The position numbers were made by a program, and so were the translations under genes. The notes beneath the pieces are model-generated. The model had not been told where the DNA came from, did not search any database, and saw only the letters and a list, made by a program, of their open reading frames with translations. A stretch of 34,196 nt of DNA from an uncultured Candidatus Saccharibacteria bacterium (GTDB lineage Bacteria > Patescibacteriota > Minisyncoccia > Phycocordibacterales > UBA10002), in contig CAZOIN010000074.1 in assembly GCA_964579985.1 (NCBI GenBank), positions 1-34,196 on the forward strand. Direction: 5' to 3'. Below are positions 6,929-28,264 of the stretch, piece by piece; position 1 is the first letter of the stretch, and each line of letters starts with the position of its first letter.

Positions 6929-9634
6929 GTGCCACCATTTCATCAATTTACGACCAAAGCAAAAGAAGCGATCAGGAGAGCCCATGAGCTTGCGATCGAA
7001 CGCGGGCAGAATCATGTGAATCCGCTTCATCTTCTTGCCGCACTGATGCTACAGGAAGAAAGTATCGTCATATCCATTCTTGAAAAACTCGAGGTAGATA
7101 CGGTGCTTCTTACCGACTCTGTCCTCGAATCTATCGAAGGAACCGAGGGCACTTCAGTTCTTTCGCCGTCCTATCAGATATACCTTACGCCCGAGCTGGC
7201 TCAGATACTGGAAAACGGAAGCCGTGTAGCCGCGACGCTGAAAGACGAATTCGTCTCGACCGAGCATCTCTTTATCGCGATGTTCGATGTCTCGGGAAGC
7301 GCGCGCGAACTGCTCGCGCGGTTCAAGCTTGAGAAAGCCGCCGTCCTGCGCGTGCTCGAGGAACTTCGCCATAGTCGCGTTACCGATGTCGGCACGTCTC
7401 CGAAGAAATTCCGGTTTCTTGCCAAGTTTACCCGAAACCTTACTTCGCTCGCGCGCGAGAATAAACTCGATCCGGTTATCGGACGAGACAATGAGATTTC
7501 CCGTATCATTCAAATTCTTTCGCGCCGCACCAAAAATAACCCAATCCTCATCGGCGAGGCCGGTGTCGGCAAGACCGCTATCGTCGAGGGTCTCGCGCTG
7601 CGCATGGCGCAGGGAGACATTCCTGAATCGCTCAAGGACAAGGAGCTGGTCTCTCTCGACCTAGGGCTTCTCATTGCCGGCACCAAGTACCGCGGTGAAT
7701 TCGAGGAGCGTCTCAAGAACATCATGAAAGAGATCGAGAAGTCCGATGGTAAAATTATCCTTTTTATTGATGAGATTCATACGATCGTCGGAGCCGGTGC
7801 CGCCGAAGGGGCCATGGACGCGTCCAATATGCTGAAGCCCGCTCTCTCGCGCGGAGAGCTTCGCGCTATCGGAGCCACGACGCTCAAAGAATACCAAAAG
7901 CATATTGAAAAAGATCCCGCGCTTACCCGCCGTTTCCAGCCAGTGTTCGTACCCGAGCCGTCGGTAGAGGACGCGATTACAATCCTTCGTGGACTGAAGG
8001 AAAAGTATGAGCTGTATCACGGCGTGCACATCACCGACGAATCTATCATCGCGGCGGTTAATCTTTCCGCGCGATACATCACGGACCGCTTTTTGCCTGA
8101 CAAGGCCGTCGACCTTATCGACGAGGCCGCTTCTTCGCTCAAGATATCCCTTGAGAATATGCCACCAGTGCTTGAGGAAACCCGTCGCAAAGTCATGCGG
8201 CTTGAGATCGAACGGGAAGCGCTTAAGAAAGAGGCTGATACCGGGAAGCAGGCAAGGGCGCGCATCAAGGAGATCGAGGCCGAGATCGCCGATCTCAAAG
8301 AAAAGACGGAGGAGATAGAGCTGAAGTGGAGGAATGAAAAAGAGACGCTCTCCGAGATCAAGAAATTCAAGAAAGAGCTTGAAATGCTCCGCATTGAAGC
8401 TGAGCAAGCGGAAGCGCGAGCCGACCTTTCCAAAGCTGCGGAGATTCGGTATGGCACAATTCCGGCCATTCAAAAGGAACTTGAGAATAACGCGAGGCGC
8501 CTGAAAAAATTGCAAAGCTCGCGGCGCATTCTCAAGGAGGAAATCCTTTCAAATGATATCGCCGAGATTGTCGCCAAATGGACGGGTATTCCGGTCATGC
8601 GCATGCTTGAGGAAGAAACATCCAAGCTCGTACGCATCGAAGATGAGCTTCGAACTCGTATTATCGGCCAAGACGATCCAATCAAGCGCGTGTCCGATGC
8701 CATCAAGCGAAGCCGTGCCGGCATTTCCGATCCGAATCGCCCTATCGGTTCGTTCCTCTTCCTGGGCCCCACCGGCGTTGGCAAGACCGAGCTCACCAAG
8801 GCGCTCGCTGAATTCATGTTCAACGACGAGCGGGCCCTCATCCGCGTGGATATGTCCGAGTTTATGGAGAAACACTCGGTCTCGAAACTCATCGGTGCTC
8901 CTCCTGGGTATGTCGGCTATGAAGAAGGAGGGACGCTCACCGAAACGATCCGTCACCGTCCGTACGCGGTGGTGCTCTTCGACGAAATCGAAAAGGCCCA
9001 CCCAGAAGTGTTCAATATCTTGCTTCAGATACTTGATGACGGCCGTCTTACCGATGCCAAGGGGCGCGGGGTGAACTTTAGGAATACCATCATCATCCTT
9101 ACTTCAAACATTGGCGGGCAGTTCATCGATAAGATGCAGCGGGTCGGTTTTTCAGTGTCGGGAAAAGCGGGGGATTATGACGATGCCAAGAATAAAATCA
9201 CCGCCGCGCTTAAGGATCATTTTCGTCCAGAATTTCTAAATCGCCTCGACGATATCATCATCTTCGACGTGCTTAGTCCAGAAGCGCTTGAAAGAATCGT
9301 CGGGATTCAGATTAAGCAGGTGGAGGAACGCCTCAAGGCAAAGGAGATCACTATCGTCGTTACTCCTGAGGTCTATAGTTTCCTTTCCAAGGAAGGGTAC
9401 AATCCTCAGTATGGCGCGAGACCGCTGAAGAGGCTCATCCAGAATAAAATTTTAAACCCTATTGCCTCGCTCATCATTGGAAAAGGGATCGGAAAGGGCG
9501 GGAGCGTATCGCTCACTATGAAGAACGGCGATATTCATTTTGAGGTGCGAAAGGGGAGGAACGGGAAAAATGGAAACGGCAACTCTATCCGAAGTGACAT
9601 AATGACGAAGGTAGCGGTGGAAGCAAAAACATAG
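6929..9634 (+). CDS. clpB: ATP-dependent chaperone ClpB
   Basis: Clp N-domain, then D1 with Walker [10 protein letters not shown] and Walker [10 protein letters not shown] long coiled-coil M-domain follows (about residues 400-530). D2 has [19 protein letters not shown] and pore loop GAPPGYVGY, with no IGF/LGF loop. The GTG start is the only start codon after the in-frame TAA at 6917..6919. Confidence 0.93.
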
Positions 9635-11865: not shown

Positions 11866-11872
11866 GTTATTG

Positions 11873-11944
11873 CGGGCCCGCCGCGAGTCGAACGCGGAAC
11901 CTCGGTTTTGGAGACCGATGTTTTACCATTGAAACTACAGGCCC
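11873..11944 (-). tRNA. tRNA-Trp (anticodon CCA)
   Basis: Acceptor GGGCCTG/CGGGCCC; D stem GTTT/AAAC; anticodon stem TCGGT/ACCGA with loop CTCCAAA. T arm CCGCG-TTCGACT-CGCGG; discriminator G. Confidence 0.9.
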
Positions 11945-11967: not shown

Positions 11968-12948
11968 TCAAGTCGAGAGAAACCCTCGCGCCGCTTTCTC
12001 GATGGCCCGTTTTTCGTTGGCTTTAAACCATGCAATACCTTTTTCTCGCTTAAACCAGGTCATCTGTCGTTTGGCATACTGCCAGATTTCCGTTTGCAGT
12101 TTCCCAATCATTTCTTCCTTTGACAGAAGTCCGCGCAGGTATCGGGAAATATATCGATACTCCAGTCCGAGCTCCTCCATTCGCTTCCAGGATAAGCCTC
12201 TCCTGTGTAGCCTTCGAACCTCCTCAATCATCTGTTCTCCAATTCGCGCGAATAGGCGAATAGCTATTTTTCTTTTCACTTCATCAGGAGAGAGGGTAAG
12301 ACCGATAAAAAGCACGTCAATATCTTCTCGCGGAGCATTTGGGTATGGCGGGATTTTTCCGAGTGCCACGGCTATCTCGATTGCCCGTATTAATCGGCGA
12401 GGATTTAGTGCATCAATAGTTTTGGCGCGCCTTGCATCGAGCTTTTTGAGCATGGAAAAAAGCTCCACTTTCGTTTTCTTTTCGAGCCTCTTTCGCAAAT
12501 TGTGATTCGGCGGGACTTCGGGGAATACCACATCGTTCACGATAGCCTGAATATACAGACCGGTTCCCCCAACAATGATGGGAAGTTTACCTCTTGAGAA
12601 AATCTGCTCAAGCTTTACCCTTGCCAGCTTTTGATATTTGGCAACACTAAACTGCTTTTTCGGGTCAGCGACATCAAGCAAATGGTGGGAGACACCCTGC
12701 ATTTCTTTCTTAATGATCTTGCCCGTACCAATATCAAGGTTTGTGTACACCTGCCTTGAGTCGGCGGAAATGACTTCGCCGTGGTATCTTTTGGCAAGCG
12801 AAACCGCGAGCGAGCTTTTGCCCACAGCCGTCGGCCCAACGATCACCAGCATTTTTCGCGGGAATCCCCCTACGGTCCGCGCATCTATTCCATTAGTCGC
12901 GCGAATAATGGAATAGACTGTTCTGCCCTTTAGGGGTGTTTTTAACAT
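11968..12948 (-). CDS. miaA: tRNA dimethylallyltransferase
   Basis: P-loop GPTAVGKSSLA, plus ISADSRQVYTNLDIGTGK and IVGGTGLYI. An alternative start at ATG 12852 (MLVIVGPT...) would give the more usual N-terminus. Confidence 0.9.
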   Translation of the reverse strand: MLKTPLKGRTVYSIIRATNGIDARTVGGFPRKMLVIVGPTAVGKSSLAVSLAKRYHGEVISADSRQVYTNLDIGTGKIIKKEMQGVSHHLLDVADPKKQFSVAKYQKLARVKLEQIFSRGKLPIIVGGTGLYIQAIVNDVVFPEVPPNHNLRKRLEKKTKVELFSMLKKLDARRAKTIDALNPRRLIRAIEIAVALGKIPPYPNAPREDIDVLFIGLTLSPDEVKRKIAIRLFARIGEQMIEEVRRLHRRGLSWKRMEELGLEYRYISRYLRGLLSKEEMIGKLQTEIWQYAKRQMTWFKREKGIAWFKANEKRAIEKAARGFLST

Positions 12949-13000: not shown

Positions 13001-13336
13001 ATGATTATTCGAATTATAGAGAAGCCGATTACCCGAGCAGAGGCAAAAGAGATCGCCGAAGAATTTTATATTGATATGGTAAAAGGTGTGGTTGACATAG
13101 AACAGGAAATTATCGCGCTTGGCGGTGAATGGCACATAGACGCCAATCATCTGATTCTTGGTAGTGGGTCGCGACAAGATATGGTATGGGGTTTTAACTT
13201 CTACCCGGATGAAAATCGCATCGAGTATACCTCTCTCATTAACATCCGACCTGCCCAGAATAACCGCAAGATCGAAGTCCAGGATGAAAAGCTGAAAAGA
13301 AGAATGGAAGAGGTAATACGAAAACTCATTATATGA
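13001..13336 (+). CDS. DUF5674-like protein
   Basis: 111 aa. The core DMVKGVVDIEQEIIALGGEWHIDANHLILGSGSRQDMVWGFNFYPDE...INIRPAQNNR matches my recollection of DUF5674 proteins. TACTAT at 12988..12993 lies 7 nt before the ATG. Confidence 0.65.
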   Translation: MIIRIIEKPITRAEAKEIAEEFYIDMVKGVVDIEQEIIALGGEWHIDANHLILGSGSRQDMVWGFNFYPDENRIEYTSLINIRPAQNNRKIEVQDEKLKRRMEEVIRKLII

Positions 13337-13632
13337 AAGCACGAACTCCTGCATTTCTCATGGCCAATTTAGGAAGCGATATGGCACAGCTTTTCTCACA
13401 CCTCGAGAGAGGGGAGAAACAGTTGGCACTATCCGCTTCGGGACGAGCGCAATCGATCATTGCGGAGTTACTTGTTCATAACGAACTTACGGAAAGGACA
13501 GGGGAGGTCGAGATACTGCGCGCTATTATTGTTGACGCGCTTTCGGAAAGACGCCTTCTCGAGGTGAATAAAAACGAGCTCGGGGATTACTTCTTGCCAT
13601 TTTCAATGCGCGTTTTACAGCACACGTTATAA
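13333..13632 (+). CDS. hypothetical protein (99 aa), translationally coupled to the DUF5674-like gene
   Basis: ATGA overlap at 13333..13336. Helical-looking sequence; no family recognised. Confidence 0.55.
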   Translation: MKARTPAFLMANLGSDMAQLFSHLERGEKQLALSASGRAQSIIAELLVHNELTERTGEVEILRAIIVDALSERRLLEVNKNELGDYFLPFSMRVLQHTL

Positions 13633-13640
13633 GTTACGTC

Positions 13641-13676
13641 TATTCTGGTATTCTCAAGAATATCAGAATAGATAAT
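13641..13676 (+). promoter_or_regulatory. 13-bp inverted repeat (TATTCTGGTATTC-N4-GAATATCAGAATA) abutting a GATAAT -10 box
   Basis: The arms are 13641..13653 and 13658..13670, with one mismatch. GATAAT at 13671..13676 lies 7 nt upstream of ATG 13684. No T-run follows, so an operator fits better than a terminator. Confidence 0.45.
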
Positions 13677-13683
13677 AGAGAGT

Positions 13684-16125
13684 ATGTTCACGAAGATTTT
13701 TCAAAAGATAGATAAAAACGACCCGAACAGTGCGGGCGGAAAGGGTGCGTCACTTGGAGAAATGACGAATGCAGGCATTCCCGTACCACCGGGGTTTGTA
13801 TTGCTTGCGGATGCGTTTGAGCGGTTTCTTGAAGAGACCGATCTTAACGTGGAAATTGACGCGATACTTCATACGGTTAATCATCGTGAAATACACACTG
13901 TTGAAGGAGCGTCGGAGAAGATAGAGGCACTCATTCTTGAAGCAAAAATGCCCAAAGATATTGCAGACGAGATCAAAGCCCAGTTCAAGAAACTTAATGC
14001 AAAATTTGTTGCGGTGCGTTCTTCCGCCACAGCCGAGGATGGCGCGACTGCCGCATGGGCGGGACAGCTTGATAGTTTTCTTAATACCACTGAAAAAGAA
14101 CTCTTACACAATGTGCAAAGATGCTGGGCATCCCTTTTAACCCCCCGCGCTATTTTTTATCGCTTCGAAAAGGGTTTACACAAAACAAAAATCTCCGTGG
14201 CGGTAGTGGTGCAGAAAATGGTTGAGTCGGAGGTTTCTGGCATTGCCTTTTCGGTGCATCCAGTCACCGAGGATAGGAACCAACTGATTATTGAGGCCGG
14301 TTTTGGCCTTGGCGAAGCAATTGTTTCTGGCCAGATTACGCCTGACAGCTACGTAGTCGAGAAAACTCCTCGTCGGATTATTGACAAAAACATCTCGGAG
14401 CAAGAACGGGGCCTCTATAGAGCTTCACTTTACTTGGGTAAAGTGGAGCAGAAGGGAGGAAATGAGTGGAAGGGTATTTCGAAAGAGCACGGCGGTACAC
14501 AGAAATTATCCGATGAGCAAATTCTTGAGCTTTCTGAACTGGTTCTCCATATCGAAAATCATTACGGCTTCCCCTCCGATATCGAATGGGCGTTCGCCAA
14601 AGGCAAGTTTTATATCCTCCAAAGCCGTCCGATTACCACTCTTTCCTCAGAGAAGCCGTCCCTCATCGGGTCCAGCAATGAGCGGACTGAAGAATGGATG
14701 GCGTGGATTTGGCCGGGATTGTATTGGTATCAAGTAATACACCCAATGTTTGCGTGGCAACAGGATTTTAAAGAATATGGGCTCTCTATAGCCAAACTGG
14801 TCGTAACGTACTCAAAGGGGACGTCGGCTTATTACTTTGTCAGAAGAGAGTATGAGGAAGAAGGAAGAAAGTTATTTGAAAAGGTTAAAAAAGATTCCAA
14901 CCTCTTAGCATCAGTTTTAGAAAAAATAAATACAGCGGCAGAAGAAATTTTTGAGCTCGGTGAAAAATGGAAAGGTACTGATTTTTCAAGTCTCTCTGAT
15001 AAGGAACTCATTAGACACCATAGATTGCTGTTTAGCTTCGACGAGCCTTTATGGAGAAACGGACAAATTCCCAACCTTTTGGAATTAGATAACAATTATT
15101 TATCAGAACACGTAAAATCAATACTAGAAGAAAAATATGGCATAGGAAGAGCTCAAGAATTATTTACTATTCTTACAACATCGACTTTTGAGTCAAAGAG
15201 TGAAAAAGAGCAATTTGACTTCCTAACACTGCTTAAACAGTATAAGAATCTAGATTCAGTTGCCAAGCAAAAAATACAGGCGCATTGGCATATGTATATG
15301 TGGATGACTTTTGGATGGGCTGGCCCAGCTCTTTCGTACAGATATTTTGAAGAGATGTTTAAAAATGCAATCAAGACAAGATCCCATTTTGTTAAAGAAA
15401 TTGAAGAAAAAATAGAAATCAAAAGAAAACTATTACAGCAACAAAAAGAGATTCTTAATGAAATCTTATCTAGGGATCGACTATTTGTAGTCTTACTTCG
15501 AAAGATACTCGAAGCTAAAGCGCGCAGAGTCGATGCTCATTCATTGACATATTTCTTGGCAGAAAAGATGATGAAAGAAATCGGCAAACGAGTAGGTTTA
15601 TCGATCAATCAAATGAGAATAGTCATCCCCTCTGAAGTACCGAAATTATTTAAAATTGTAAACGTAGAAAAAATAAATGACGAGTATGAAAGAGTACTTA
15701 TATGGTTTGAAAACGGGATTTCAAAAAAATATACAGGTACATCTGCGGAGAAAAAGCTAAAATACGTCTTTGATCGATTACCGGAAACTCTCGACACTGA
15801 AGAATTAAAAGGCCAGTTGGCTTATCCGGGTAAAGTAAAAGGAAATATAAAGGTAATATTGGATATAAAGGATGCGAAAAAATTTCAAGAGGGAGAAATA
15901 TTAGTTACCCGAATGACTGATCCGAGTTATGTACCCCTAATGAAGGTCGCAAGGGCTATCGTTACAGATATTGGCGGTATAACTTGTCATGCCGCCATCG
16001 TTGCCCGCGAGATGAGAAAACCCTGCATCATCGGCACGAAAATCGCCACCAAAGTTCTGAAGGACGGGGATATGGTGGAGGTGGATGCAAATGAGGGGGT
16101 GGTGAGGATTTTGAGAAAAGCATAA
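13684..16125 (+). CDS. PEP-utilizing-enzyme family phosphotransferase (ATP-grasp PPDK_N domain, helical middle, C-terminal swivel-His domain; no PEP/pyruvate TIM barrel)
   Basis: N-terminal motifs are GGKGASLGEMTNAGIPVPPGFV, VAVRSSATAEDG and DIEWAFAKGKFYILQSRPIT. The C-terminus carries VTRMTDPSYVPLM...IVTDIGGITCHAAIVAREMRKPCIIGT, and the gene ends about 35 residues later. Length and domain order resemble rifampicin phosphotransferase and YvkC-type enzymes. Confidence 0.85.
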   Translation: MFTKIFQKIDKNDPNSAGGKGASLGEMTNAGIPVPPGFVLLADAFERFLEETDLNVEIDAILHTVNHREIHTVEGASEKIEALILEAKMPKDIADEIKAQFKKLNAKFVAVRSSATAEDGATAAWAGQLDSFLNTTEKELLHNVQRCWASLLTPRAIFYRFEKGLHKTKISVAVVVQKMVESEVSGIAFSVHPVTEDRNQLIIEAGFGLGEAIVSGQITPDSYVVEKTPRRIIDKNISEQERGLYRASLYLGKVEQKGGNEWKGISKEHGGTQKLSDEQILELSELVLHIENHYGFPSDIEWAFAKGKFYILQSRPITTLSSEKPSLIGSSNERTEEWMAWIWPGLYWYQVIHPMFAWQQDFKEYGLSIAKLVVTYSKGTSAYYFVRREYEEEGRKLFEKVKKDSNLLASVLEKINTAAEEIFELGEKWKGTDFSSLSDKELIRHHRLLFSFDEPLWRNGQIPNLLELDNNYLSEHVKSILEEKYGIGRAQELFTILTTSTFESKSEKEQFDFLTLLKQYKNLDSVAKQKIQAHWHMYMWMTFGWAGPALSYRYFEEMFKNAIKTRSHFVKEIEEKIEIKRKLLQQQKEILNEILSRDRLFVVLLRKILEAKARRVDAHSLTYFLAEKMMKEIGKRVGLSINQMRIVIPSEVPKLFKIVNVEKINDEYERVLIWFENGISKKYTGTSAEKKLKYVFDRLPETLDTEELKGQLAYPGKVKGNIKVILDIKDAKKFQEGEILVTRMTDPSYVPLMKVARAIVTDIGGITCHAAIVAREMRKPCIIGTKIATKVLKDGDMVEVDANEGVVRILRKA

Positions 16126-16128
16126 AAC

Positions 16129-16389
16129 ATGATACCATTTCGGAGTATGAAAGTTAGTAAGAACAATTATCATTACAACATCATCGTTACCCCCGAAAAG
16201 GAAGGTGGCTTTACCGTTGTGGTACCTGCTTTACCTGGTTGTGTTACGTATGGGAAAACGCTTACGGAAGCGAAACGAATGGCAGGGGATGCTATTTACG
16301 GGTACATTCAAAGTTTGAAGAAACATGGCGAACAAATTCCATCCGACGAAGACACGTACGTTTCGTCTCTCGATGTGACCTATGCCTAA
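16129..16389 (+). CDS. hicB: HicB family antitoxin
   Basis: Motif EGGFTVVVPALPGCVTYGKTLTEAKRMAGDAIYGYIQSLKKHGEQIP. The start may instead be ATG 16147. The gene overlaps hicA by 8 nt. Confidence 0.85.
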   Translation: MIPFRSMKVSKNNYHYNIIVTPEKEGGFTVVVPALPGCVTYGKTLTEAKRMAGDAIYGYIQSLKKHGEQIPSDEDTYVSSLDVTYA

Positions 16390-16606
16390 ACTGCCAGTGA
16401 TATCGGCAAAGAAATTAGTTCGTTTTCTTGAAGCGAATAGTTTTGTACTTGATCATACGAGTGGAAGTCACTTCATTTTTTATCACCACGCGAGCCGGAG
16501 GCGGGCCGTTGTGCCGAAACATACTCGTGATCTCCCAAAGGGGACCCTACTTTCGATTCTTCGGGAGGCTGGATTTAGCCGCGCTGACCTTCTTCGTTTC
16601 TTTTGA
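16382..16606 (+). CDS. hicA: HicA family mRNA interferase toxin
   Basis: 74 aa with KLVRFLEANSFVLDHTSGSHFIFYH...VVPKHTRDLPKGTLLSILREAG, a typical HicA/YcfA pattern. Confidence 0.85.
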   Translation: MPKLPVISAKKLVRFLEANSFVLDHTSGSHFIFYHHASRRRAVVPKHTRDLPKGTLLSILREAGFSRADLLRFF

Positions 16607-16620
16607 ACACTAATAGTGGT

Positions 16621-16692
16621 GGCTTGGCACAAAAATTGCTAAAGGACGGTGATATGGTGGAGGTGGATGCGAATAAGGGTATAATTACCTAA
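16621..16692 (+). pseudogene. orphan 3'-terminal remnant of a PEP-utilizing-enzyme gene
   Basis: In frame it reads GLAQKLLKDGDMVEVDANKGIIT-stop, against ATKVLKDGDMVEVDANEGVVRILRKA-stop at the end of 13684..16125. Nucleotides 16642..16680 match 16060..16098 at 35 of 39 positions. Confidence 0.75.
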
Positions 16693-16719
16693 AATAATTA
16701 GTCGCTAAACCCAAAATAT

Positions 16720-17535
16720 ATGTCAGAACCAGAGTTTTTCTTTACACGACATAGCAAGTCAAGTTATGCAGAGTATGAAAAAACAATGAAAGGAGGGAAC
16801 CCCCAAGCTCCTTTTGAACATACTCAGCAGGAAGAATCGGATTTGACTGAAGCCGGAATTAAAATGGCAGTTGAAAAAGCGAAAGAATTTTTTGGTCGCC
16901 TGAACCCGAAAACCGACCAATTATTTTTTGTTACCAGCAACGAAGCTCGCGCAATAGGAACCGCGAACATATATAGGCGGGAGGCTAAATCAAGAGGCTT
17001 TGAAATCATCCGGCCGGAACATAGTAGAAGCCCTCTTGCGGAAAAAGAGGGTGAGGGGGAACTGAGAATTCTAGAGACACTATCACTTAATTCTGAAAAC
17101 ACCCTACGGTTTCAGGTTTTCGGTTCATCGGAACCGAAGGTAAATTGGGGAAATGTAGACGATGCATTTAAACAGAAGTGGCGGGAAGCGAGAAAAATTA
17201 TTGACGGGAACAACAAAGGTTCATGGGGAGCGAATTTCGCCGCTCACTCGGAGGAAATAAGTAAGATTTTTCCTGGTATTGAAACTGCAGAGGATTTTTA
17301 TCGTACGAAATTTAGAAATATGCTACGTCTTATCAAGTGGGCTGATAAAAAGGCAATACCCAAAGAGGACAAACAGATCAAGATTTTAGGATTCGGACAC
17401 GAAGATTACATGGTTAAATTTTTAGAGGATGAGTTTAAGCAAGAAGGGATACTAAATTGTGAAACGGTTCAGTTCTCACTGGATGAACTAAAGAATATAC
17501 ATGCGACCGCACGTAACAAAACAGAGCAACTGTAA
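16720..17535 (+). CDS. histidine phosphatase superfamily protein (phosphoglycerate-mutase-like branch)
   Basis: FFFTRHSKS is a variant of the RHG motif. Also LTEAGIKMA, TSNEARAIGTA, and the second catalytic His in ILGFGHEDYM. Confidence 0.65.
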   Translation: MSEPEFFFTRHSKSSYAEYEKTMKGGNPQAPFEHTQQEESDLTEAGIKMAVEKAKEFFGRLNPKTDQLFFVTSNEARAIGTANIYRREAKSRGFEIIRPEHSRSPLAEKEGEGELRILETLSLNSENTLRFQVFGSSEPKVNWGNVDDAFKQKWREARKIIDGNNKGSWGANFAAHSEEISKIFPGIETAEDFYRTKFRNMLRLIKWADKKAIPKEDKQIKILGFGHEDYMVKFLEDEFKQEGILNCETVQFSLDELKNIHATARNKTEQL

Positions 17536-17692
17536 TGGAGAATTATACCGAAGGCGGGACCTCAACATTACATGTTCAGTACCCCAATTGGTTTTTCTGT
17601 TCGTGCGGATACCCTAGAAAAAGCTCAATCGGGCTTCACGTCTCACACGGAAGCATCTCACGCTTCCTCTCCCCATCTCGCTTCGCTCAATG

Positions 17693-17774
17693 CCGGGGGA
17701 GAGACTCGAACTCTCAAACCTTTCGGTGCACGATTTTGAGTCGTGTGCGGTTACCAATTTCGCCACCCCGGCGT
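17693..17774 (-). tRNA. tRNA-Leu (anticodon CAA)
   Basis: Acceptor GCCGGGG/CCCCGGC; anticodon stem CACGA/TCGTG with loop CTCAAAA. Long variable arm and T arm GAGAG-TTCGAGT-CTCTC. Confidence 0.9.
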
Positions 17775-20757: not shown

Positions 20758-23034
20758 CTAGAGAGCTTTTTTCTTCTTGAAGCCGCGAGTCTTTTTTTCT
20801 TGCGCAAGCATTTCAAGGGCGCGGGGAAGCTCTACGGTATACACATCGTCGGGTGGCTTGATTGAACGGAAGTCGCCGTCATGCACGATGTACGGTCCGA
20901 AGCGGCCCATATTCGCACTAATCTCCTTGCCGGTAGTGGGGTGAACTCCGAGCACGCGCGGGAGCGAGAGGAACCGAAGCGCGTCCACAAGCGTTAGTTT
21001 GGAAACGTCAAAAGCACGTGGAACGCTCGCGCGGCGGGGTTTTCCGGAAGCTGGCAGACCCTCTTTCTTGGCCGTCCCTTTTTCCCTAGGTCCGCCTTTG
21101 GCGGACCGGGCAACCGAATCCTTTGGATTCGGTTTAGCAACTTTTCCCACCTGGACATAAAAGCCGAATCGTCCATTAAGCAGATACACATCCTCTCCGG
21201 TTTGCGGATACTTTCCAATGGGTTCGTCGGGCTTTATCTCAAGGCCTTCGGCGGTGAGCGCGCCTATGCAGTCTGGAAAGCGTGCGCAGGAAAGGAATTT
21301 TCCACCCCGACCAAGTTTCCACACCATTCCCGCGCCGCAAAGCGGGCACTTGAATTCTTTCGGCGCTTCACCAAGGGTCGTTGCCTTGTCGAGTTTTTCT
21401 TTCGACTTCACATCTTTGCGGAACGGGGTGTAGAAATCTTTGAGCGTTTTTTCATATTCGCGCGTGCCTAAGGCGATATCGTCAAGTTTGTCTTCCATGT
21501 CCGCGGTAAAGGTGTCGCTGATATAGGAAGCGAAGTGCTCTTCGAGGAATCCGCTCACTACCAACCCCGTGTCGGTCGGCTTAAGGGAACGATTTTCGCG
21601 CGTGACATATTCTCGATCAACGAGCGTTTCCATGATAGAAGCATATGTGGAAGGCCGGCCGATGCCGCGCTTTTCGAGCTCCTTGATAAGGCCCGCTTCG
21701 CTGTAGCGGGGCAGCGGCTGAGTTTGCTTTTCCTCGGTTCCAAGGTTAAGAAGCTTAAGTGGATCGCTCTTTGCCACCTTCGGAAGCTCGACATCCTCGC
21801 CACGCGCCTCGGGATCGGCGAGAAGCCATCCTTGGTAGGTAAGACGCACCCCATGTGCGGAAAAGTTAGGAATCGCTCCCCCCGCGACATTCGCCGTGAT
21901 CTTGGTGCGAAGCATCTCGGCATCGGGCATCTGCGAGGACACCGTGCGTTTCCAGATAAGCTCGTAAAGTCTTTTCTGTTCAGGGTTGATACCGGCGTTT
22001 TCTTTCGAAAGGTTTGTCGGACGGATGGCTTCATGCGCTTCCTGCGCGTTCTTCACTTTGCCGGCATACGCGCGGAGCGAGACGAATTCTTTTCCAAATT
22101 TCTTTTCAATAACCGATGCGATCTGCCTCTTGGCGGATTCGGCGAGATTGGTAGAGTCGGTGCGCATGTAGGTAATGAGTCCGGCTTCGTAGAGTTTTTG
22201 AGCGACACCCATGGTGCGTCTCGGTGAGAAATTAAGACGAGTAGAAGCGACCTGTTGAAGCGTAGACGTGATGAAAGGCGCCTTCGGCGAGCGCTTGACG
22301 CTGGTCTCGGTGAGGTCCGTCACGCTCCAGCTTCCCCTGTTTCCCGCTTCAACGATTTTTTCAACAACTTTTTTATCGCGCGGTTCTTCGCTGCAGGTGA
22401 GCAGGAGCTTTTCTTTCTTTTTGGTTTCGGTGTCGGCGGTGATCACCCAAAAGATTTCCGGCTTAAAGCCTCTGATTTCCCGTTCGCGTTCCGCGAGTAT
22501 GCGGAGCGCGGGCGATTGCACGCGGCCGGCCGAAAGGCCATAGCGCACCTTTTTCCAAATGATGCCTGAAAGGTCATAGCCGACCAGACGGTCGAGTACA
22601 CGACGAGCTTCTTGAGCGCGGCGAAGATTCTGATCTATATCACGCGGATGCTTGATCGCTTCTTCCACGGCCTCTTTGGTGATCTCGTGATACACCGCGC
22701 GCCTAATGGGTGGATGGTTCTTGCCCAGCTTTTCTTTGATGATCTCGGCAAGGTGCCAGGCAATGGCCTCGCCTTCGCGATCGGGGTCAGTCGCCAGAAT
22801 GATTTCATCCGCCTTCTTTGCGGCCGCAGTAATCTCCGCAACCACCTCTTCCTTCCTATTCACAACCTCGTAGTGCGGGATAAAACCGCCTTCGATGTCG
22901 AGGGCGTTCTTGTTGCTTTTGGGAAGGTCGCGCACATGTCCTATGGACGCCTTGACGACGTAGTCTTCCCCTAAATATTTTCCGATTGTCTTGGCCTTTG
23001 AGGGCGACTCGACGATGAGTAGTTTGTGCGACAT
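20758..23034 (-). CDS. topA: DNA topoisomerase I
   Basis: Toprim N-terminus LLIVESPSKAKTIGKYLG and active-site Tyr block GLITYMRTDS. One zinc ribbon (CPLCGAGMVWKLGRGGKFLSCARFPDC), then C-terminal GRFGFY/GRFGPY repeats. Confidence 0.93.
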   Translation of the reverse strand: MSHKLLIVESPSKAKTIGKYLGEDYVVKASIGHVRDLPKSNKNALDIEGGFIPHYEVVNRKEEVVAEITAAAKKADEIILATDPDREGEAIAWHLAEIIKEKLGKNHPPIRRAVYHEITKEAVEEAIKHPRDIDQNLRRAQEARRVLDRLVGYDLSGIIWKKVRYGLSAGRVQSPALRILAEREREIRGFKPEIFWVITADTETKKKEKLLLTCSEEPRDKKVVEKIVEAGNRGSWSVTDLTETSVKRSPKAPFITSTLQQVASTRLNFSPRRTMGVAQKLYEAGLITYMRTDSTNLAESAKRQIASVIEKKFGKEFVSLRAYAGKVKNAQEAHEAIRPTNLSKENAGINPEQKRLYELIWKRTVSSQMPDAEMLRTKITANVAGGAIPNFSAHGVRLTYQGWLLADPEARGEDVELPKVAKSDPLKLLNLGTEEKQTQPLPRYSEAGLIKELEKRGIGRPSTYASIMETLVDREYVTRENRSLKPTDTGLVVSGFLEEHFASYISDTFTADMEDKLDDIALGTREYEKTLKDFYTPFRKDVKSKEKLDKATTLGEAPKEFKCPLCGAGMVWKLGRGGKFLSCARFPDCIGALTAEGLEIKPDEPIGKYPQTGEDVYLLNGRFGFYVQVGKVAKPNPKDSVARSAKGGPREKGTAKKEGLPASGKPRRASVPRAFDVSKLTLVDALRFLSLPRVLGVHPTTGKEISANMGRFGPYIVHDGDFRSIKPPDDVYTVELPRALEMLAQEKKTRGFKKKKAL

Positions 23035-23246
23035 TGACAGTGAGTATTGTTTACCCTGCTAAAAATTCTACAGAATCAGATCGGGTGACAGGTGTAAGAG
23101 TTGCACAGATTTATTTGAGAAGCAAGAAAAGGTGCATGAACTGAAGATTTCTGACGGGGGCACGAAAAGAATTTCAAATGCAAATTTGTGTACAAACCTC
23201 GCGTCTTCCTTTAGTATGGTTTTGAATCAACACAGAAAGGTCTTAT

Positions 23247-24269
23247 ATGAACAAACAAGCGCTAGTTGTCGGTTTCGGAATGATCGGTCGCCCGCTGTGT
23301 CAGGCTCTTTTACAAAATGGATGGGAAGTCGCCTACGTCCTTACGTCACGAGGAATATTCAGGCTCCACGCTGGAGAATTGGAAGGATGGGTCGGAGAGC
23401 TTCAAGAGTACGAACGAATCCTCAGTGAGGTCTCGGTTGTGTGCCTCGCTCTTTCAGCGGCTGATAACGGCGTGCTGGAATATGGCTACATGCTCCCGGC
23501 ATTAAAGCAGGGAAAGATCGTCATCACCTGCGCGAAACGCGCTTTGGCGAATTATCTCGACCTGTATCCGTACGCCACGGCAGAGCGACCGATCCTCGGT
23601 CTTGACGCAACGGTTGGCGGCAACAGCGGGATACTTCAACATTTGCGCAATCGCATCAATCCAAAACTTGCCGTAGAGATGCATTTCGTGATCAACGCAT
23701 CAATGAATTGCTTCATGTTCGAACTTGCAGAGGGTGGAAATTCTCCTTCTGCGGCCATGGAAGAAGTGCGTCGTCGCGGACTCGCGGAACCGATTAAGCA
23801 AAAGGGCAAGTTCGCTCCGTTTTTTGCTGGAGAAGTGAACGACACGATGTTTAAAACCAGTATCCTCATAAATTACTGCAGATTATTGTCAGTGCCCCGC
23901 ATGATGATGCAGGACTGGGTTGTACGGCATCTGGGTGAAGAAGCACTACAGAGACTTTTTCGAAGTCGAGATCGCCGCTATATCGTCTCCATTTTCTCCG
24001 GAGACGCACCGGATGAGGATGTTATCGGCGGGTTTACGCATACGATCGTTGCCGAAGGAAATAAGTTATCGATCTCGGCGGGATTTAAGCTGGTGAGTCA
24101 GGAGCCGTACGCTCGCATGAAAATCCCGGGAGCACTAAACGCCGCGTTCACTATCGAGGGTCCCGGCGGAGCCCACGGAACTTCGTATATTGAAGGCGTC
24201 GGCGCAGGTCCGGGTCCTACCGTAGCCGCGCTCATCCAGAATCTGAATCGTCTTGCCGGAACAATGTAA
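23247..24269 (+). CDS. homoserine dehydrogenase-like oxidoreductase (divergent, no ACT domain)
   Basis: Rossmann motif VVGFGMIGR, plus ITCAKRA (compare TANK) and GLDATVGGNSGIL. Also FVINASMNCF (compare ILNGTTNY), GLAEP...GEVNDTMFKTSIL (D-x3-K block) and GVGAGPGPTVAALIQNL. The RBS-like GAAAGG lies 7 nt upstream. Confidence 0.6.
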   Translation: MNKQALVVGFGMIGRPLCQALLQNGWEVAYVLTSRGIFRLHAGELEGWVGELQEYERILSEVSVVCLALSAADNGVLEYGYMLPALKQGKIVITCAKRALANYLDLYPYATAERPILGLDATVGGNSGILQHLRNRINPKLAVEMHFVINASMNCFMFELAEGGNSPSAAMEEVRRRGLAEPIKQKGKFAPFFAGEVNDTMFKTSILINYCRLLSVPRMMMQDWVVRHLGEEALQRLFRSRDRRYIVSIFSGDAPDEDVIGGFTHTIVAEGNKLSISAGFKLVSQEPYARMKIPGALNAAFTIEGPGGAHGTSYIEGVGAGPGPTVAALIQNLNRLAGTM

Positions 24270-24287
24270 TCTTCCGGTATCGAAAAA

Positions 24288-24310
24288 CCCGCTGTAGCAA
24301 CGGCGGGTTT
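24288..24310. terminator. bidirectional intrinsic terminator between the hom-like gene and dprA
   Basis: Hairpin cccgctg-tagcaa-cggcggg, flanked by AAAAA (24283..24287) and TTT (24308..24310). Confidence 0.65.
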
Positions 24311-24312
24311 CC

Positions 24313-25170
24313 TTATGCCAGGTGAATCTCTCCGCTACTTTCTTTGATAAGACCTTTGAGCTCCATAAGGGAAAGAAGGGCGTTCGCTTGACCGGTCGGC
24401 AAGCCCAGCGAATCGAAAAGATCGTCGCGCGAGAGCGGCGTCTGTAGAAGCGCGATGACCTTTCTTTCTTCGAGCGTACAGTCGGAATAATCGCGCTCTA
24501 CTTTATCGCCTGCCTTAAATCCCAGCGCCTCTCGAAGATCTGCAGGCGATGTGATCGGCGTTGCGCCAAGTTTTATCAGCATATGAGGCCCGGCGGACGA
24601 CGATGAGAAAATGGAACCGGGAATGGTGAACACGTCGCGATTGTATTCGGTCGCGAATTTCGATGTGATCAGCGCACCGCTTTTTTGTTCGGCTTCCACG
24701 ACGAGCACCGCGTCGGACAGTCCAGCGAGGATTCGATTCCGCTGCGGAAAACTCCAGGTGGTCGCCTGAAAGTTCTGTTCAAATTCCGAAAGTAGCGCGC
24801 CTCCAGCTTTCAGTATATCGCCCGCAAGATTTCGGTTGGTGGAAGGGTAGAGGACTTTTGGGTCGAGACCCGAACCGGGCACGGCGACCGTCGGAAGTTT
24901 TGCATTAAGCGCGGCGCGATGCGCGAGGGCGTCAATCCCAAGCGCCAAACCGGAGATGATGACAATGGGATACCCTTGCAATCCGGCAATGAGCATTTCG
25001 ACCGCTTCCTTTCCATAGTTCGAGTATTTACGTGAACCCACTACCGTCAGCCATTTGTACCCCTCCGGCGGCAGTGCGCCCGAGAGGTACAGTTTCTTCG
25101 GCGGGTCGGTAATTTCCTGAAGTCGGCGGGGGAATTGTTCAGGTTTTAATTCCTTAAGTTTGCTGTTCAT
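24313..25170 (-). CDS. dprA: DNA processing protein DprA (Smf)
   Basis: Motifs VVGSRKYSNYGKEAVEML, ISGLALGIDALAHRAAL and VVEAEQKSGALITSKFA, with a C-terminal winged-helix-like tail. Confidence 0.9.
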   Translation of the reverse strand: MNSKLKELKPEQFPRRLQEITDPPKKLYLSGALPPEGYKWLTVVGSRKYSNYGKEAVEMLIAGLQGYPIVIISGLALGIDALAHRAALNAKLPTVAVPGSGLDPKVLYPSTNRNLAGDILKAGGALLSEFEQNFQATTWSFPQRNRILAGLSDAVLVVEAEQKSGALITSKFATEYNRDVFTIPGSIFSSSSAGPHMLIKLGATPITSPADLREALGFKAGDKVERDYSDCTLEERKVIALLQTPLSRDDLFDSLGLPTGQANALLSLMELKGLIKESSGEIHLA

Positions 25171-25188
25171 GATAATATGGTGTAAACA

Positions 25189-25197
25189 ATTGTAGCA
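25189..25197 (-). promoter_or_regulatory. extended -10 TGCTACAAT upstream of dprA
   Basis: The minus strand reads tgctacaat, 18 nt before ATG 25170. Confidence 0.4.
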
Positions 25198-25475
25198 CTT
25201 TTATTTTCAAAGTGCGGAAAGGATACGATGGGTGACAAACTGATGGTCTCTCTTCAACGTTCGGAAGGCCGTTTGAACCGATTAGCGGCCAAGCTTGAAG
25301 GAACTGGTGCTGGAAATCGCAAAGAACAAGGTCAGAGGTTTCTTCAGGTCAGAAAAAGTCATCAGGTCAGGAGAAACAAGAGTGGCAAAACTGCGGAGGC
25401 TGGGATATAACCGAATCCGCGTCGCAATTTACAAGCAAGTGCTAGGCTAAAAACGCTTACCAAGTTCTCCACACG

Positions 25476-25499
25476 GCGAACCGCGCGGTTCGCTTTTTT
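25476..25499 (+). terminator. intrinsic terminator inside the dprA-serS intergenic region
   Basis: Hairpin gcgaacc-gcgc-ggttcgc followed by TTTTTT. It works only on the plus strand. Confidence 0.8.
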
Positions 25500-25655
25500 G
25501 TTGTGCACATTCCCGAAATGCCTCCTTATCTATATACTACCTATTAAGTACTCAATACCGAGACAAGTTTCCCAAAGAAAGAGGGACGAAAAAAGTGGTA
25601 TTTCTTATTCGCAGGTATTTGTAGATTGGTACCAGATTAGTTGATTGGTATTTAT

Positions 25656-26927
25656 ATGTTGGATATCAAATTCATCCGAGAGAACAAAGACCTTATCACA
25701 ATGGCGGCAGAGAAAAAGCGCGTCAATTTTAATGTAGATGAGCTGCTCAAACTTGACGATGAGCGTCGCACCCTGCTAACGCTGGTGGAGCAAAAGCGCT
25801 CCGAGCATAACCTCAAGAGTACGCAAGTTGGGCATACGTCTATTCCCGAGCGAAGGCAACTTTTAGTTGAAGAACTTCGTACGCAAAAAGGCGGCCTCGA
25901 AGAAGAAGAGGCGAAACTGAAAGAGATCATGCAAAAATGGCAGGCGCTCATGCTACAGGTCCCGAACATTCCCGACATCTCGGTTCCGAATGGGGAGAGC
26001 GACAAAGATAATAAAGAAGTGAGAACGTGGGGCACTATTCCGGAATTTTCGACTCCGCCCAAGAACCACATGGAGCTTATGGAGGCCTGCAACCTTGTCG
26101 ATTTCGTACGCGGGGGGGACGTGGCGGGATTCCGGGGATATTTTTTGAAAAATGAAGGAGCACTCCTTACCTTCGGGCTTTGGCAATTCACGCTTGAGCA
26201 TTTTGTAAATAAAGGATTTACATTCATGATGGCGCCTTCACTGGTGCGAAGGCAAACGCTTCTCGGCACCGGATATCTCCCCCAAGGGGAAGATGATCTC
26301 TATAAGACACAGGACGGGGATTACCTTGCGGGCACCGCTGAAGTAGCGGCTATGTCGTATTTTTCCGAGACGATCCTTAAGAAAGAAGAACTGCCAAAGA
26401 AAATCCTCGCCTTTTCTCCGTGTTTTCGCCGCGAAGCGGGAAGCTATGGCAAGGACACCAAGGGACTCATCCGCGTGCATGAATTCTTCAAACTTGAGCA
26501 GGTGGTGATTTGTGAAGCGAACCACGAACTATCGGTAAAATTTCACGAGGAGCTCACGGAGAACGCCGAAGGACTTTTGCGGGCACTCAAGCTCCCGTAT
26601 CGTGTCGTCATCAACTGCGGAGCCGACCTAGGACTCGGTCAAGTGAAGAAGTATGACATTGAAACGTGGGTTCCGTCGGAGAGAGCCTATCGGGAAACTC
26701 ATTCTTCTTCGTATTTCCATGATTTCCAGACACGACGTCTAAACCTCCGCTACAAAGATATCGAAGGGAAGACGCATTTTGCGCACTCGCTCAATAATAC
26801 GGCGCTCGCCACTCCTCGCATTTTGGTGCCTCTCGTTGAGAATTATCAACAGCCTGACGGATCGATAAGGGTGCCGGAAGTACTTCAAAAATATGTGGGG
26901 AAGGAAATTATTACGCCGAAAAACTGA
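25656..26927 (+). CDS. serS: seryl-tRNA synthetase
   Basis: MLDIKFIRENKDL is a typical SerRS N-terminus, followed by a coiled-coil arm. Class II motif 2 is SPCFRREAGSYGKDTKGLIRVHEF; motif 3 region is SLNNTALATPRILVPLVENYQ. The track ORF starts 5 codons earlier at TTG 25641. Confidence 0.92.
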   Translation: MLDIKFIRENKDLITMAAEKKRVNFNVDELLKLDDERRTLLTLVEQKRSEHNLKSTQVGHTSIPERRQLLVEELRTQKGGLEEEEAKLKEIMQKWQALMLQVPNIPDISVPNGESDKDNKEVRTWGTIPEFSTPPKNHMELMEACNLVDFVRGGDVAGFRGYFLKNEGALLTFGLWQFTLEHFVNKGFTFMMAPSLVRRQTLLGTGYLPQGEDDLYKTQDGDYLAGTAEVAAMSYFSETILKKEELPKKILAFSPCFRREAGSYGKDTKGLIRVHEFFKLEQVVICEANHELSVKFHEELTENAEGLLRALKLPYRVVINCGADLGLGQVKKYDIETWVPSERAYRETHSSSYFHDFQTRRLNLRYKDIEGKTHFAHSLNNTALATPRILVPLVENYQQPDGSIRVPEVLQKYVGKEIITPKN

Positions 26928-27839: not shown

Positions 27840-27870
27840 ATTCGGGAATTAGGTATATAATGAGTACTCT

Positions 27871-28260
27871 ATGTCATCGTTCCTACAATTACCTATTAGC
27901 TACCTTTTTTGGCACTACACGATCGCGTGGATGGACCTTCTCCGTCTCTACAAGAATTTTTCGTGGTTCCTCTGGAATTTTTTCTCCATCCGCATCTTGT
28001 GGGAAACACTCTTTTCTCCATGGCATCGGATTCTAGAACATGCCGAGAAAGAACTAGGAGGGCTCCTCGGCAGTATCATCCTCAACCTGATGCTTCGACT
28101 CATCGGATTCTTCGTTCGTGCAAGCACCATACTTTTCGGCCTCTTCGCGCTCGTTCTCTTTTCGATTGCCTTTTTGGTGTTCTTTGCGTTGTGGCCGTTC
28201 CTCCCGCTTCTTATCGTTGGTTGTATCCTGAATGGCGTAGCGGGGCTCGTCGCATTTTAA
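27871..28260 (+). CDS. small polytopic membrane protein (129 aa), unknown family
   Basis: Trp/Phe-rich N-terminal half followed by 2-3 predicted TM helices. It ends 4 nt before the next gene. TATAAT (27856..27861) lies 9 nt upstream. Confidence 0.65.
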   Translation: MSSFLQLPISYLFWHYTIAWMDLLRLYKNFSWFLWNFFSIRILWETLFSPWHRILEHAEKELGGLLGSIILNLMLRLIGFFVRASTILFGLFALVLFSIAFLVFFALWPFLPLLIVGCILNGVAGLVAF

Positions 28261-28264
28261 GAGG

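Follow-up and report, generated by a model that had tools for sequence, protein, structure and literature searches.

Gene content of the locus

The 34,196-nucleotide (nt) stretch of DNA analyzed here (the window in the following text) comes from an uncultured Candidatus Saccharibacteria bacterium (contig CAZOIN010000074.1, assembly GCA_964579985.1). On its forward strand it carries, in this order, a gene for a single-chain dikinase of 813 amino acids (aa), a hicBA toxin-antitoxin pair, the orphan 3' end of a swivel-domain gene, and a gene for a 271-aa divergent histidine phosphatase (Table 1). The 813-aa protein is a fused member of the small-molecule dikinases of the rifampin phosphotransferase (RPH) and HpeHI type and is not an RPH proper. 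The phosphatase belongs to a family that recurrently adjoins kinase genes, swivel dikinases among them.

Table 1. Positions of the genes, domains, and landmarks of the dikinase-phosphatase locus in the window
Feature	Coordinates	Strand	Basis
Single-chain dikinase, 813 aa: ATP-grasp, rifampin (RIF)-binding-domain-like center, phosphohistidine swivel	13684..16125	+	Open reading frame (ORF) and Pfam
ATP-grasp (PPDK_N) nucleotide-binding domain, aa 15-325	13726..14658	+	Pfam PF01326, E = 6e-97
Central, mostly helical domain, aa 326-705, presumed to bind the acceptor substrate	14659..15798	+	AlphaFold2, Foldseek
Phosphohistidine swivel, aa 706-813 (Pfam match, aa 734-805)	15799..16122	+	PF00391, E = 1.3e-26
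Codon of catalytic His769 in GGITCH	15988..15990	+	His invariant in the alignment of homologs
hicB-like antitoxin gene, 86 aa, starting 3 nt past the dikinase stop	16129..16389	+	Pfam HicB_lk_antitox, 43.4 bits (cutoff, 27)
hicA toxin gene, 74 aa, overlapping hicB by 8 nt	16382..16606	+	Pfam HicA_toxin, 58.7 bits (cutoff, 27)
Orphan 3' end of a swivel gene, ~24 codons and stop	16621..16692	+	Translation, 47-nt repeat, alignment
Divergent histidine-phosphatase-superfamily protein with helical insertion, 271 aa	16720..17535	+	Conserved core, PF00300 in relatives, AlphaFold2, Foldseek
tRNA-Trp(CCA), left landmark of the lower-GC block	11872-11944	-	ARAGORN
miaA, left flank	11968-12948	-	Next to tRNA-Trp
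tRNA-Leu(CAA), right landmark of the lower-GC block	17691-17772	-	ARAGORN

Domain architecture of the 813-aa dikinase

Pfam detected PPDK_N and the phosphoenolpyruvate (PEP)-utilizers mobile domain in the 813-aa protein and gave no other match. The swivel motif TDIGGITCHAAIVAREM is present, and its catalytic His, residue 769, is invariant in 26 of 26 aligned homologs (H449 of the alignment). Two features expected of RPH/HpeHI-type proteins were thus found, namely, a PPDK_N-type ATP-grasp domain and a swivel that has the conserved His and lies within ~50 residues of the C terminus. The domain order is that of RPH, in which ATP-grasp (residues 1 to 314), RIF-binding (327 to 754), and swivel (767 to 865) domains follow each other and phosphate is moved by the swiveling His (PMC4844700); it is not that of PEP synthase (PpsA) or pyruvate phosphate dikinase (PPDK). 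The TIM barrel of the latter enzymes (PEP-utilizers_C, PF02896) was found neither in the 813-aa protein nor in the 26 other window ORFs scanned with Pfam, and it is not listed for 32 homologs of the central domain or for the best 120 full-length matches. An earlier note on this DNA, based on the sequence alone, had described a PPDK_N-type N terminus, a swivel at the extreme C terminus without a TIM barrel, and an RPH-like domain order, and all three descriptions held.

By sequence, the ATP-grasp domain matched the PDB entries 8a8e, 9dae, 5fbs, and 9goj, as well as 5hv6 (5hv6 and 9goj are among the RPH/HpeI-like ATP-grasp structures), and the swivel aligned with its counterparts in PEP synthases and RPH. 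ATP-grasp and swivel are contiguous in PpsA and lie ~380 residues apart in the 813-aa protein. The NCBIfam models for PEP synthase, RPH, PigC, and RedH matched the end domains only, all below their cutoffs. The top-ranked names were those of PEP synthase, with 434 bits for TIGR01418 (cutoff, 739.75) and 455 bits for NF005057 (cutoff, 598); the model of rifamycin-inactivating phosphotransferase proper (NF041857) scored 362 bits against a cutoff of 999. The 813-aa sequence (P0077) was unique in a collection of 5.8 billion proteins, its best full-length relatives being 41 to 47% identical, and the ORF finishes with the normal C terminus of the family in the alignment of homologs.

Fold of the central domain

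Residues 326 to 705 gave no Pfam match and no PDB sequence match, also when a 26-sequence profile was used. An AlphaFold2 model of aa 321 to 813 built on this 26-sequence alignment reached a pLDDT of 92.7 and a pTM of 0.90 and is mostly helical, in agreement with the earlier description of a helical middle of about 380 aa without a recognizable motif. When the modeled center and swivel were compared with the PDB using Foldseek, the top six matches were all RPH of Listeria (RPH-Lm; best, 5fbt, 5fbu, and 5hv1), with E values from 9e-13 to 8e-11, 480 to 590 aligned columns, and TMq values from 0.29 to 0.53. All non-RPH matches were confined to the swivel. The structure search against RPH that had been suggested as a check (E, ~1e-12) thus came out positive, and the central domain, as modeled, has the RIF-binding-domain fold. 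Because of this match and the same domain order in RPH, the RPH-type rather than the PpsA reading holds at the fold level.

Within the dikinase gene, the GC content is 0.36 in the central part (0.34 at third codon positions), 0.47 in the ATP-grasp part, and 0.44 in the swivel part. The low value of the central part may stem from its amino-acid composition or from a different origin. The drop from 0.47 to 0.36, together with the high identity of the ATP-grasp domain to that of one phosphatase-linked relative (L047), prompted the idea of a chimera between a resident phosphatase-linked ATP-grasp domain and an imported central-plus-swivel module. We rejected this idea as unsupported, since the identity of 72 to 74% holds for stand-alone as well as fused copies of the ATP-grasp domain, whether or not a phosphatase lies close by.

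A family of two-component dikinases in arrays

The homologs of the central domain (n = 32; best identity, 53%) are ~470 to 490 aa long apart from shorter partial sequences. They begin where the central domain of the window protein begins and contain the swivel but no ATP-grasp domain. The separate polypeptides of two-component dikinases were thus found among these homologs and not in the window gene, which is one ORF. We sampled the family further through 80 metagenome loci fetched with a profile of the window's central and swivel domains. Counted in the 34 loci with a length of 10 kb or more, swivel genes had a median of 4 and a maximum of 8 per locus; an ATP-grasp gene was present in 18 of these loci, never more than one per locus. 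Among all 234 swivel ORFs of the sample, 5 were fused to an ATP-grasp domain. Fused relatives found elsewhere are 805 to 845 aa long and 45 to 46% identical when compared at full length; many others measure 1000 to 1400 aa. The family is therefore usually two-component and arrayed, and the window gene is a fused form.

In such arrays, a single ATP-grasp (I-type) protein presumably charges all of the substrate-plus-swivel (H-type) proteins. The ATP-grasp domain is 72 to 76% identical across relatives, stand-alone or fused; central domains are 20 to 53% identical, and each swivel follows the central domain to which it is attached. A conserved nucleotide-binding module appears to work with many acceptor modules that have diverged, and the two appear to have been joined and separated repeatedly. 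Many Patescibacteria lineages have conserved members of the subfamily of the window protein, 40 to 58% identical and encoded in the chromosome next to housekeeping genes, and the homologs of both the dikinase and the phosphatase come mostly from genomes or metagenome contigs labeled Patescibacteria. Of 8000 candidates scored, 1975 proteins had E values of ≤1e-100.

Arrays of six to eight paralogs with variable domains and a swivel His were seen at L002 (1-11529), L059 (4206-15391), L082 (2-14756), L091 (278-11051), L097 (4481-15592), and L106 (1-8631); where the contig reaches far enough, a single ATP-grasp gene (~312 aa) usually stands alone at one end of the array. In L002, seven tandem swivel genes are followed by a HAD hydrolase gene, which takes the place of a histidine phosphatase at the end of the array, by an unknown gene, and by one stand-alone 314-aa PPDK_N gene. 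In addition, many Patescibacteria and a few archaeal-labeled proteins of 1000 to 1630 aa (L006, 1084-5982; P0078-P0196) combine PPDK_N and PEP-utilizers domains, some of them also matching Epimerase_2 and AcnX_swivel_put; these may be multi-module fused dikinases. The long protein of L006 is encoded directly upstream of a phosphatase homolog.

The 271-aa histidine phosphatase

Alone, the 271-aa protein gave no Pfam match at an E value of ≤0.01, PF00300 included, and no PDB sequence match. PF00300 was matched by 26 of 42 members of its family at an E value of ≤1 (best, 1.5e-7). The family of 44 homologs conserves the branch-1 core, i.e., R10-H11-S12, S73-x3-R77-A-x2-T81-A82, and G-H227-E228, with R10-H11, R77, and H227(-E228) either invariant or conserved to 90% or more among 42 sequences. 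An AlphaFold2 model (pLDDT, 95.8) shows a helical insertion of ~110 aa over the core fold. Foldseek returned 184 PDB matches with E values of ≤0.001, including TIGAR and RosC. The best 50 were almost all phosphoglycerate mutases (PGM) or other histidine phosphatases, with E values of ~1e-7, 11 to 15% identity, and TM-scores of 0.33 to 0.6, which are modest because of the insertion. Judging from the conserved residues and the predicted fold, the 271-aa protein is a divergent branch-1 histidine phosphatase with an intact catalytic core; the earlier note had already named the gene a histidine-phosphatase gene.

The family is compact, with 100 representatives at an E value of ≤1e-10 among 1.84 billion proteins. 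All of its 36 loci in the genome collection (36/36) are from metagenome-assembled genomes, most of which are labeled Patescibacteria. Longer members (370 to 624 aa) carry no extra Pfam domain, and no fused P-loop kinase domain was found in them.

Linkage of the phosphatase to kinase genes

We evaluated gene linkage from the phosphatase side in 32 Patescibacteria genome loci. A swivel dikinase gene directly adjoins the phosphatase gene on the same strand in 20 of the 32 loci, and a PfkB kinase gene lies directly downstream of it in 10 (verified with Pfam in three and by homology in the rest). One locus (L033) is counted in both groups, having a swivel gene upstream and a PfkB gene downstream of the phosphatase gene. 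An APH-type kinase gene is adjacent or one gene away in two loci, and no kinase gene is near the phosphatase gene in one. The gaps between phosphatase and swivel genes range from -4 to ~40 nt, and their starts and stops often overlap by 4 nt. All protein-homolog loci with sufficient flanking sequence (L004, L006, L007/L008, L045, L046, and L047) likewise have the phosphatase beside a dikinase. Fused dikinases of 690 to 816 aa lie directly beside the phosphatase in L014, L016, L045, and L047, and the one in L047 aligns end to end with the window protein.

The phosphatase family is thus recurrently found beside swivel dikinases, a linkage whose absence would have spoken against the earlier note. 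The phosphatase is nevertheless a general partner of kinases and is not specific to the dikinase of the window. Its pairing with three unrelated kinase types argues for a small phosphomonoester, and against the swivel, as its substrate.

The PfkB genes following the phosphatase (~290 aa; L018-L020, L023, L025, L028, L030, L032, L033, and L039; e.g., L019, 8842-9714) start 1 to 5 nt after it in most of these loci, with a short overlap in L032. Their products score below all NCBIfam equivalog cutoffs, and their best match is ribokinase. In L034 (6955-7938), the gene for an APH-type phosphotransferase and the start of the phosphatase gene share 4 nt. In L029 (8887-10859), the phosphatase gene is followed by a HAD hydrolase gene and then by an APH gene resembling homoserine kinase.

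The hicBA pair and the swivel gene remnant

A predicted HicAB system, with adjacent HicA and HicB both above their Pfam cutoffs, now lies between the dikinase gene and the remnant. The HicB match covers positions 1 to 58 of the 123-position model; going by this match, the 86-aa HicB may be without the usual C-terminal DNA-binding part. The genes are in the order hicB and then hicA, so tightly packed behind the dikinase stop that there is no space for a promoter of their own.

The frame at 16609..16692 reads TNSGGLAQKLLKDGDMVEVDANKGIIT up to its stop codon, parallel to the C terminus of the kinase, GTKIATKVLKDGDMVEVDANEGVVRILRKA, which is likewise followed by a stop. At the nucleotide level, positions 16051-16097 and 16633-16679 form a 47-nt direct repeat with 87% identity, by far the longest repeat between 13 and 18 kb; the calculated chance expectation of 41 matches out of 47 is ~5e-12 in 5 kb. 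No part of the swivel domain is more conserved than this duplicated stretch. The stop of the remnant ends 27 nt before the phosphatase ATG at 16720, a spacing that fits the relatives, in which a swivel gene commonly ends 1 to 40 nt upstream of the phosphatase. Translation and repeat together establish that the orphan 3' end postulated by the earlier note is real. The tail of the remnant (KGIIT before the stop) does not point to a source subfamily. A metagenome scan with the full 813-aa protein gave no close relative, and no close relative lacking hicBA was found that would represent the state before hicBA.

Interpretation of the locus

The interpretation that we favor builds on the observed domain identities, folds, catalytic residues, and gene linkage. 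We consider it probable, with some reserve, that the 813-aa protein is an ATP-dependent water dikinase of the RPH, HpeHI, and phenylphosphate synthase kind, that the phosphatase hydrolyzes the product of a neighboring kinase, and that a swivel gene once abutted the phosphatase gene. We infer the chemistry, a small-molecule substrate, and the action of both window proteins on the same compound. By analogy with RPH, HpeHI, and PpsAB, the N-terminal ATP-grasp domain would bind ATP, and His769 of the swivel would take the beta-phosphate, with release of AMP and phosphate (Pi). The swivel would then move to the central helical domain and phosphorylate a hydroxyl group of the bound small molecule. 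The phosphatase, going by the linkage of its family, would most likely hydrolyze the phosphomonoester made by the neighboring kinase through phospho-His11. A swivel-domain gene would once have adjoined the phosphatase gene, of which the last 24 codons are left.

Several observations weigh against this interpretation. By sequence, the end domains of the 813-aa protein are nearest to the archaeal PEP synthases 8a8e and 9dae and only then to RPH-Lm, and the TM-scores to RPH (0.29 to 0.53) are modest. The Thr two residues before the catalytic His (GGITCH, 15982-15990), which is conserved across the 26 homologs, is of the PEP synthase type; RPH and the phenol dikinases have Met at this position, and the Thr is a regulatory phosphorylation site in PEP synthase and PPDK (PMC12167813). 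Pfam matched no regulatory-protein families among the window ORFs scanned, and no search was aimed at DUF299-type genes. Where several different H-type genes share an array with one phosphatase gene, the phosphatase could equally act on the shared swivel. Moreover, the phosphatase was found in 0 of the 80 loci fetched with the central-plus-swivel profile of the window. When central domains were clustered, the window protein fell into cluster 0 (125 members), and the dikinases adjacent to phosphatases fell mainly into clusters 2 and 3 or remained singletons. Cluster 2 holds downstream partners of ~470 aa and fused proteins of ~805 aa, and cluster 3 holds mostly upstream partners of ~360 aa. The case for a functional pairing of the two window genes is weak because cluster 0 was never beside the phosphatase in the 80 loci.

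These cluster and linkage results speak for an alternative in which the dikinase and the phosphatase are not partners. The real partner would have been another swivel gene, of the upstream ~360-aa or the 470/805-aa type, deleted down to the 24-codon remnant, and the 813-aa dikinase with hicBA would be an unrelated neighbor with its own substrate. Because arrays of tandem paralogs are usual, the duplicated stretch is highly conserved, and cluster 0 was never beside the phosphatase elsewhere, the remnant may derive from such a lost tandem paralog rather than from the 813-aa gene, and that paralog could be the phosphatase's real partner. Over the same 47 nt, paralogs within a locus are at least 87% identical in 4 of 81 pairs, and in the closest relatives of the phosphatase the dikinase gene is downstream, not upstream. 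However, 87% is in the upper tail for paralogs, and the best match of the remnant among more than 240 swivel genes compared was the end of the window dikinase itself. Cluster 2 shows homology to cluster 0 along the entire central domain (hhalign, 98.6%; E value, 7e-16), with cluster 3 resembling cluster 0 over the last ~70 columns only; the phosphatase gene is intact, and the 813-aa gene is now the sole kinase gene near it. We give this alternative an appreciable but minority weight. Accordingly, not all of what the earlier note had proposed survives. A swivel gene did probably abut the phosphatase gene, as would be expected of former neighbors in one operon, but the remnant need not be the end of this kinase. 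The phosphatase almost always co-occurs with a kinase, but in none of the 80 loci was the central-domain subfamily of the window beside the phosphatase. The linkage of kinase and phosphatase genes is real at the level of the phosphatase family, whose partners also include PfkB and APH-type kinases.

The remaining explanations concern the activity of either protein. If the phosphatase dephosphorylated the dikinase itself, at the phospho- or pyrophospho-His or the nearby Thr of the swivel, as a regulatory or turnover-assisting subunit, its presence as a single gene next to at most one ATP-grasp gene and several H-type genes (L010, L012, L021, L026, and L035) and the retention of the regulatory-type Thr would be accounted for. 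Precedents are SixA, whose targets are phosphohistidine carrier domains, and, in phenylphosphate synthase, the third subunit, which is stimulatory. This role is improbable, however, as the same family pairs equally tightly with PfkB and also with APH-type kinases, both of which lack a swivel, and most dikinase arrays have no phosphatase. The ~110-aa helical insertion also speaks against it, such insertions being typical of small-molecule histidine phosphatases, unlike the minimal SixA. We likewise think it unlikely that the 813-aa protein serves in resistance or detoxification as RPH proper does, by phosphorylating and thereby inactivating an antibiotic or a plant or microbial toxin. Its domain order, its central fold, and its position in a lower-GC accessory block between tRNA genes and beside a toxin-antitoxin pair would suit such a function, but the RPH model score is far below the cutoff, the sequence shows no similarity to that of the RIF-binding domain, the subfamily is spread across many Patescibacteria lineages beside housekeeping genes, and a phosphatase partner would reverse the inactivation. 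Finally, the best sequence matches of the end domains and the top NCBIfam names are those of PEP synthases, as a degenerate or truncated PEP synthase, or one whose barrel is encoded elsewhere, would predict. Given that every PEP synthase cutoff was missed, that a 380-aa RIF-binding-domain-like module separates domains contiguous in PpsA, and that the ORF ends normally, this explanation is scarcely credible; the barrel is listed for none of the 32 central-domain homologs and none of the best 120 full-length matches, which refutes the reading of the protein as a truncated PpsA.

A broader scheme, which we regard as speculative and rather unlikely, extends the favored interpretation to a combinatorial phosphorylation system in Patescibacteria and some DPANN archaea. 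One ATP-grasp "charger" would serve an array of substrate-plus-swivel modules, each with its own metabolite. PfkB and APH-type kinases would share the histidine phosphatase with this system, in which it would free or recycle products of one class, and the window gene would represent a single-module version in fused form. If this were true, reduced cells could trap or activate diffusible host-derived compounds without dedicated transporters, in a manner recalling a soluble phosphotransferase system.

Comparison with known systems

RPH-Lm (5FBS, 5FBT, 5FBU, and 5HV1) resembles the 813-aa protein in being a single chain with the same domain order and no PEP/pyruvate barrel. It is the sole PDB structure matching the central domain of the window protein, and the conversion of ATP to AMP, Pi, and a phosphorylated acceptor is presumably alike in the two. 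The window protein differs from RPH-Lm in that its central domain has no detectable sequence similarity to that of RPH-Lm, it scores far below the NCBIfam RPH cutoff, Thr takes the place of Met at the second residue before the His, and its ATP-grasp and swivel domains are nearer those of PEP synthases. RPH is a resistance determinant of Firmicutes and Actinobacteria, whereas the window family belongs to Patescibacteria and lies beside housekeeping genes.

In HpeHI, CreHI, and PpsAB, the ATP-grasp and substrate-plus-swivel parts are on separate proteins; the equivalent His is essential in HpeH and RPH, and two-component homologs rely on the conserved His for the same mechanism (PMC12167813). 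The relatives of the window protein share with HpeHI, CreHI, and PpsAB(C) an I-type ATP-grasp protein of ~312 aa, an H-type substrate-plus-swivel protein, a conserved catalytic His near the C terminus, and a third accessory gene in the cluster. In phenylphosphate synthase, this third gene is PpsC. The window family differs in that it belongs to Patescibacteria, its third component is a histidine phosphatase, and its H-type arrays reach up to eight genes with at most one I-type gene, and the window gene itself differs in being fused.

PpsA and PPDK have homologous ATP-grasp and swivel domains and the GGxTCH motif, including the Thr. In contrast to these enzymes, the window protein has no TIM barrel, an inserted foreign domain of 380 aa, and a C-terminal swivel, and it scores below the family cutoffs. 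Another PPDK-derived protein outside central carbon metabolism is VadK (Rv1127c) of Mycobacterium tuberculosis, a histidine kinase with a regulatory role that has methylcitrate-cycle enzymes as interaction partners and autophosphorylates on His; going by its description, it can be likened to the window protein (PMC13400623).

The 271-aa protein shares with the branch-1 histidine phosphatases (PGM, TIGAR, RosC, glucosyl-3-phosphoglycerate phosphatase, and phosphoserine phosphatase) the core fold, the N-terminal Arg-His, the second Arg in S-x3-R-A-x2-T-A, and the second His (GHE). It differs from them in being only 11 to 15% identical, in being missed by Pfam, and in its helical insertion. The coupling of a small-molecule kinase to a branch-1 histidine phosphatase is known from PFK-2/FBPase-2. 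A similar kinase-phosphatase coupling could set the level of one phosphorylated metabolite here, but in the window family the genes are separate and the kinase partner is interchangeable (dikinase, PfkB, or APH type).

Significance

The source labels of these dikinase genes read "phosphoenolpyruvate synthase / pyruvate phosphate dikinase" despite the absence of a pyruvate-binding barrel. If used in metabolic reconstructions of Patescibacteria, such labels could wrongly imply a PEP-forming step. The dikinase family is large, and these findings offer a well-defined experimental target and a correction to "PEP synthase" annotations. Patescibacteria genomes are reduced and very small; because the family is nevertheless expanded in them, with up to eight paralogs side by side, an important function is suggested. 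The phosphatase clade, almost always adjoining one of three unrelated kinase types, is a testable entry point, as its substrate would probably reveal the product of at least some of the neighboring kinases.

Both the dikinase and the phosphatase belong to gene families for which no published study was found in the literature searched, and no description of such Patescibacteria arrays or of a link between dikinases and histidine phosphatases was found there, which is not proof of absence. Relative to that literature, the acceptor-module arrays with at most one ATP-grasp gene and the compact histidine-phosphatase clade almost always beside a kinase are new.

Other features of the window

The window is a Patescibacteria-type chromosome segment carrying genes for IF-2, ClpB, alanine racemase, MiaA, ParB, RelA/SpoT, TopA, DprA, SerRS, and DnaX. 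The dikinase-phosphatase locus lies in a block (13.0 to 17.6 kb) with a GC content of 0.36 to 0.47, compared with 0.49 for the whole window, and this block lies between tRNA-Trp/miaA and tRNA-Leu(CAA), as the earlier note had stated; ARAGORN located the tRNAs. A scan for promoters and terminators from 12.9 to 18 kb gave counts not clearly above those of shuffled sequence, and PADLOC, which searches for anti-phage defense systems, gave 0 matches for the six genes of the locus.

Just upstream of the dikinase gene (13001-13632), a DUF5674 gene (111 aa) overlaps by 4 nt an ORF of 99 aa without a Pfam match. A similar pair of DUF5674 and a small ORF lies ~3 kb downstream of the phosphatase in L029 (11558-12261), and the small ORFs of the two pairs are weakly similar (22% identity; E value, 5e-5). 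Between this pair and the dikinase, a 16-nt inverted repeat, TCTATTCTGGTATTCT/AGAATATCAGAATAGA (13639-13672), with 94% complementarity and a 2-nt spacer, ends 12 nt ahead of the dikinase ATG. This repeat is AT-rich, does not resemble a terminator, and may be an operator.

The window shows partial synteny with two loci containing the phosphatase (window 20758-26927 with L006 1-11623; window 6929-9634 with L004 3188-8261). In L006, a cluster of dikinase, phosphatase, and swivel genes sits between topA and dprA-serS, and the corresponding topA...dprA-serS stretch of the window has in its place just one unannotated gene of 340 aa (23247-24269). In L004, the phosphatase gene directly follows clpB. 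The dikinase/phosphatase cluster seems to move among a few chromosomal neighborhoods. Besides the canonical ClpB gene (6929-9634), the window has a region (27033-30724) with a second gene for a ClpB-like protein (819 aa), which contains the second AAA module and the ClpB_D2-small domain only and is preceded by two ORFs (268 and 129 aa) without Pfam matches.

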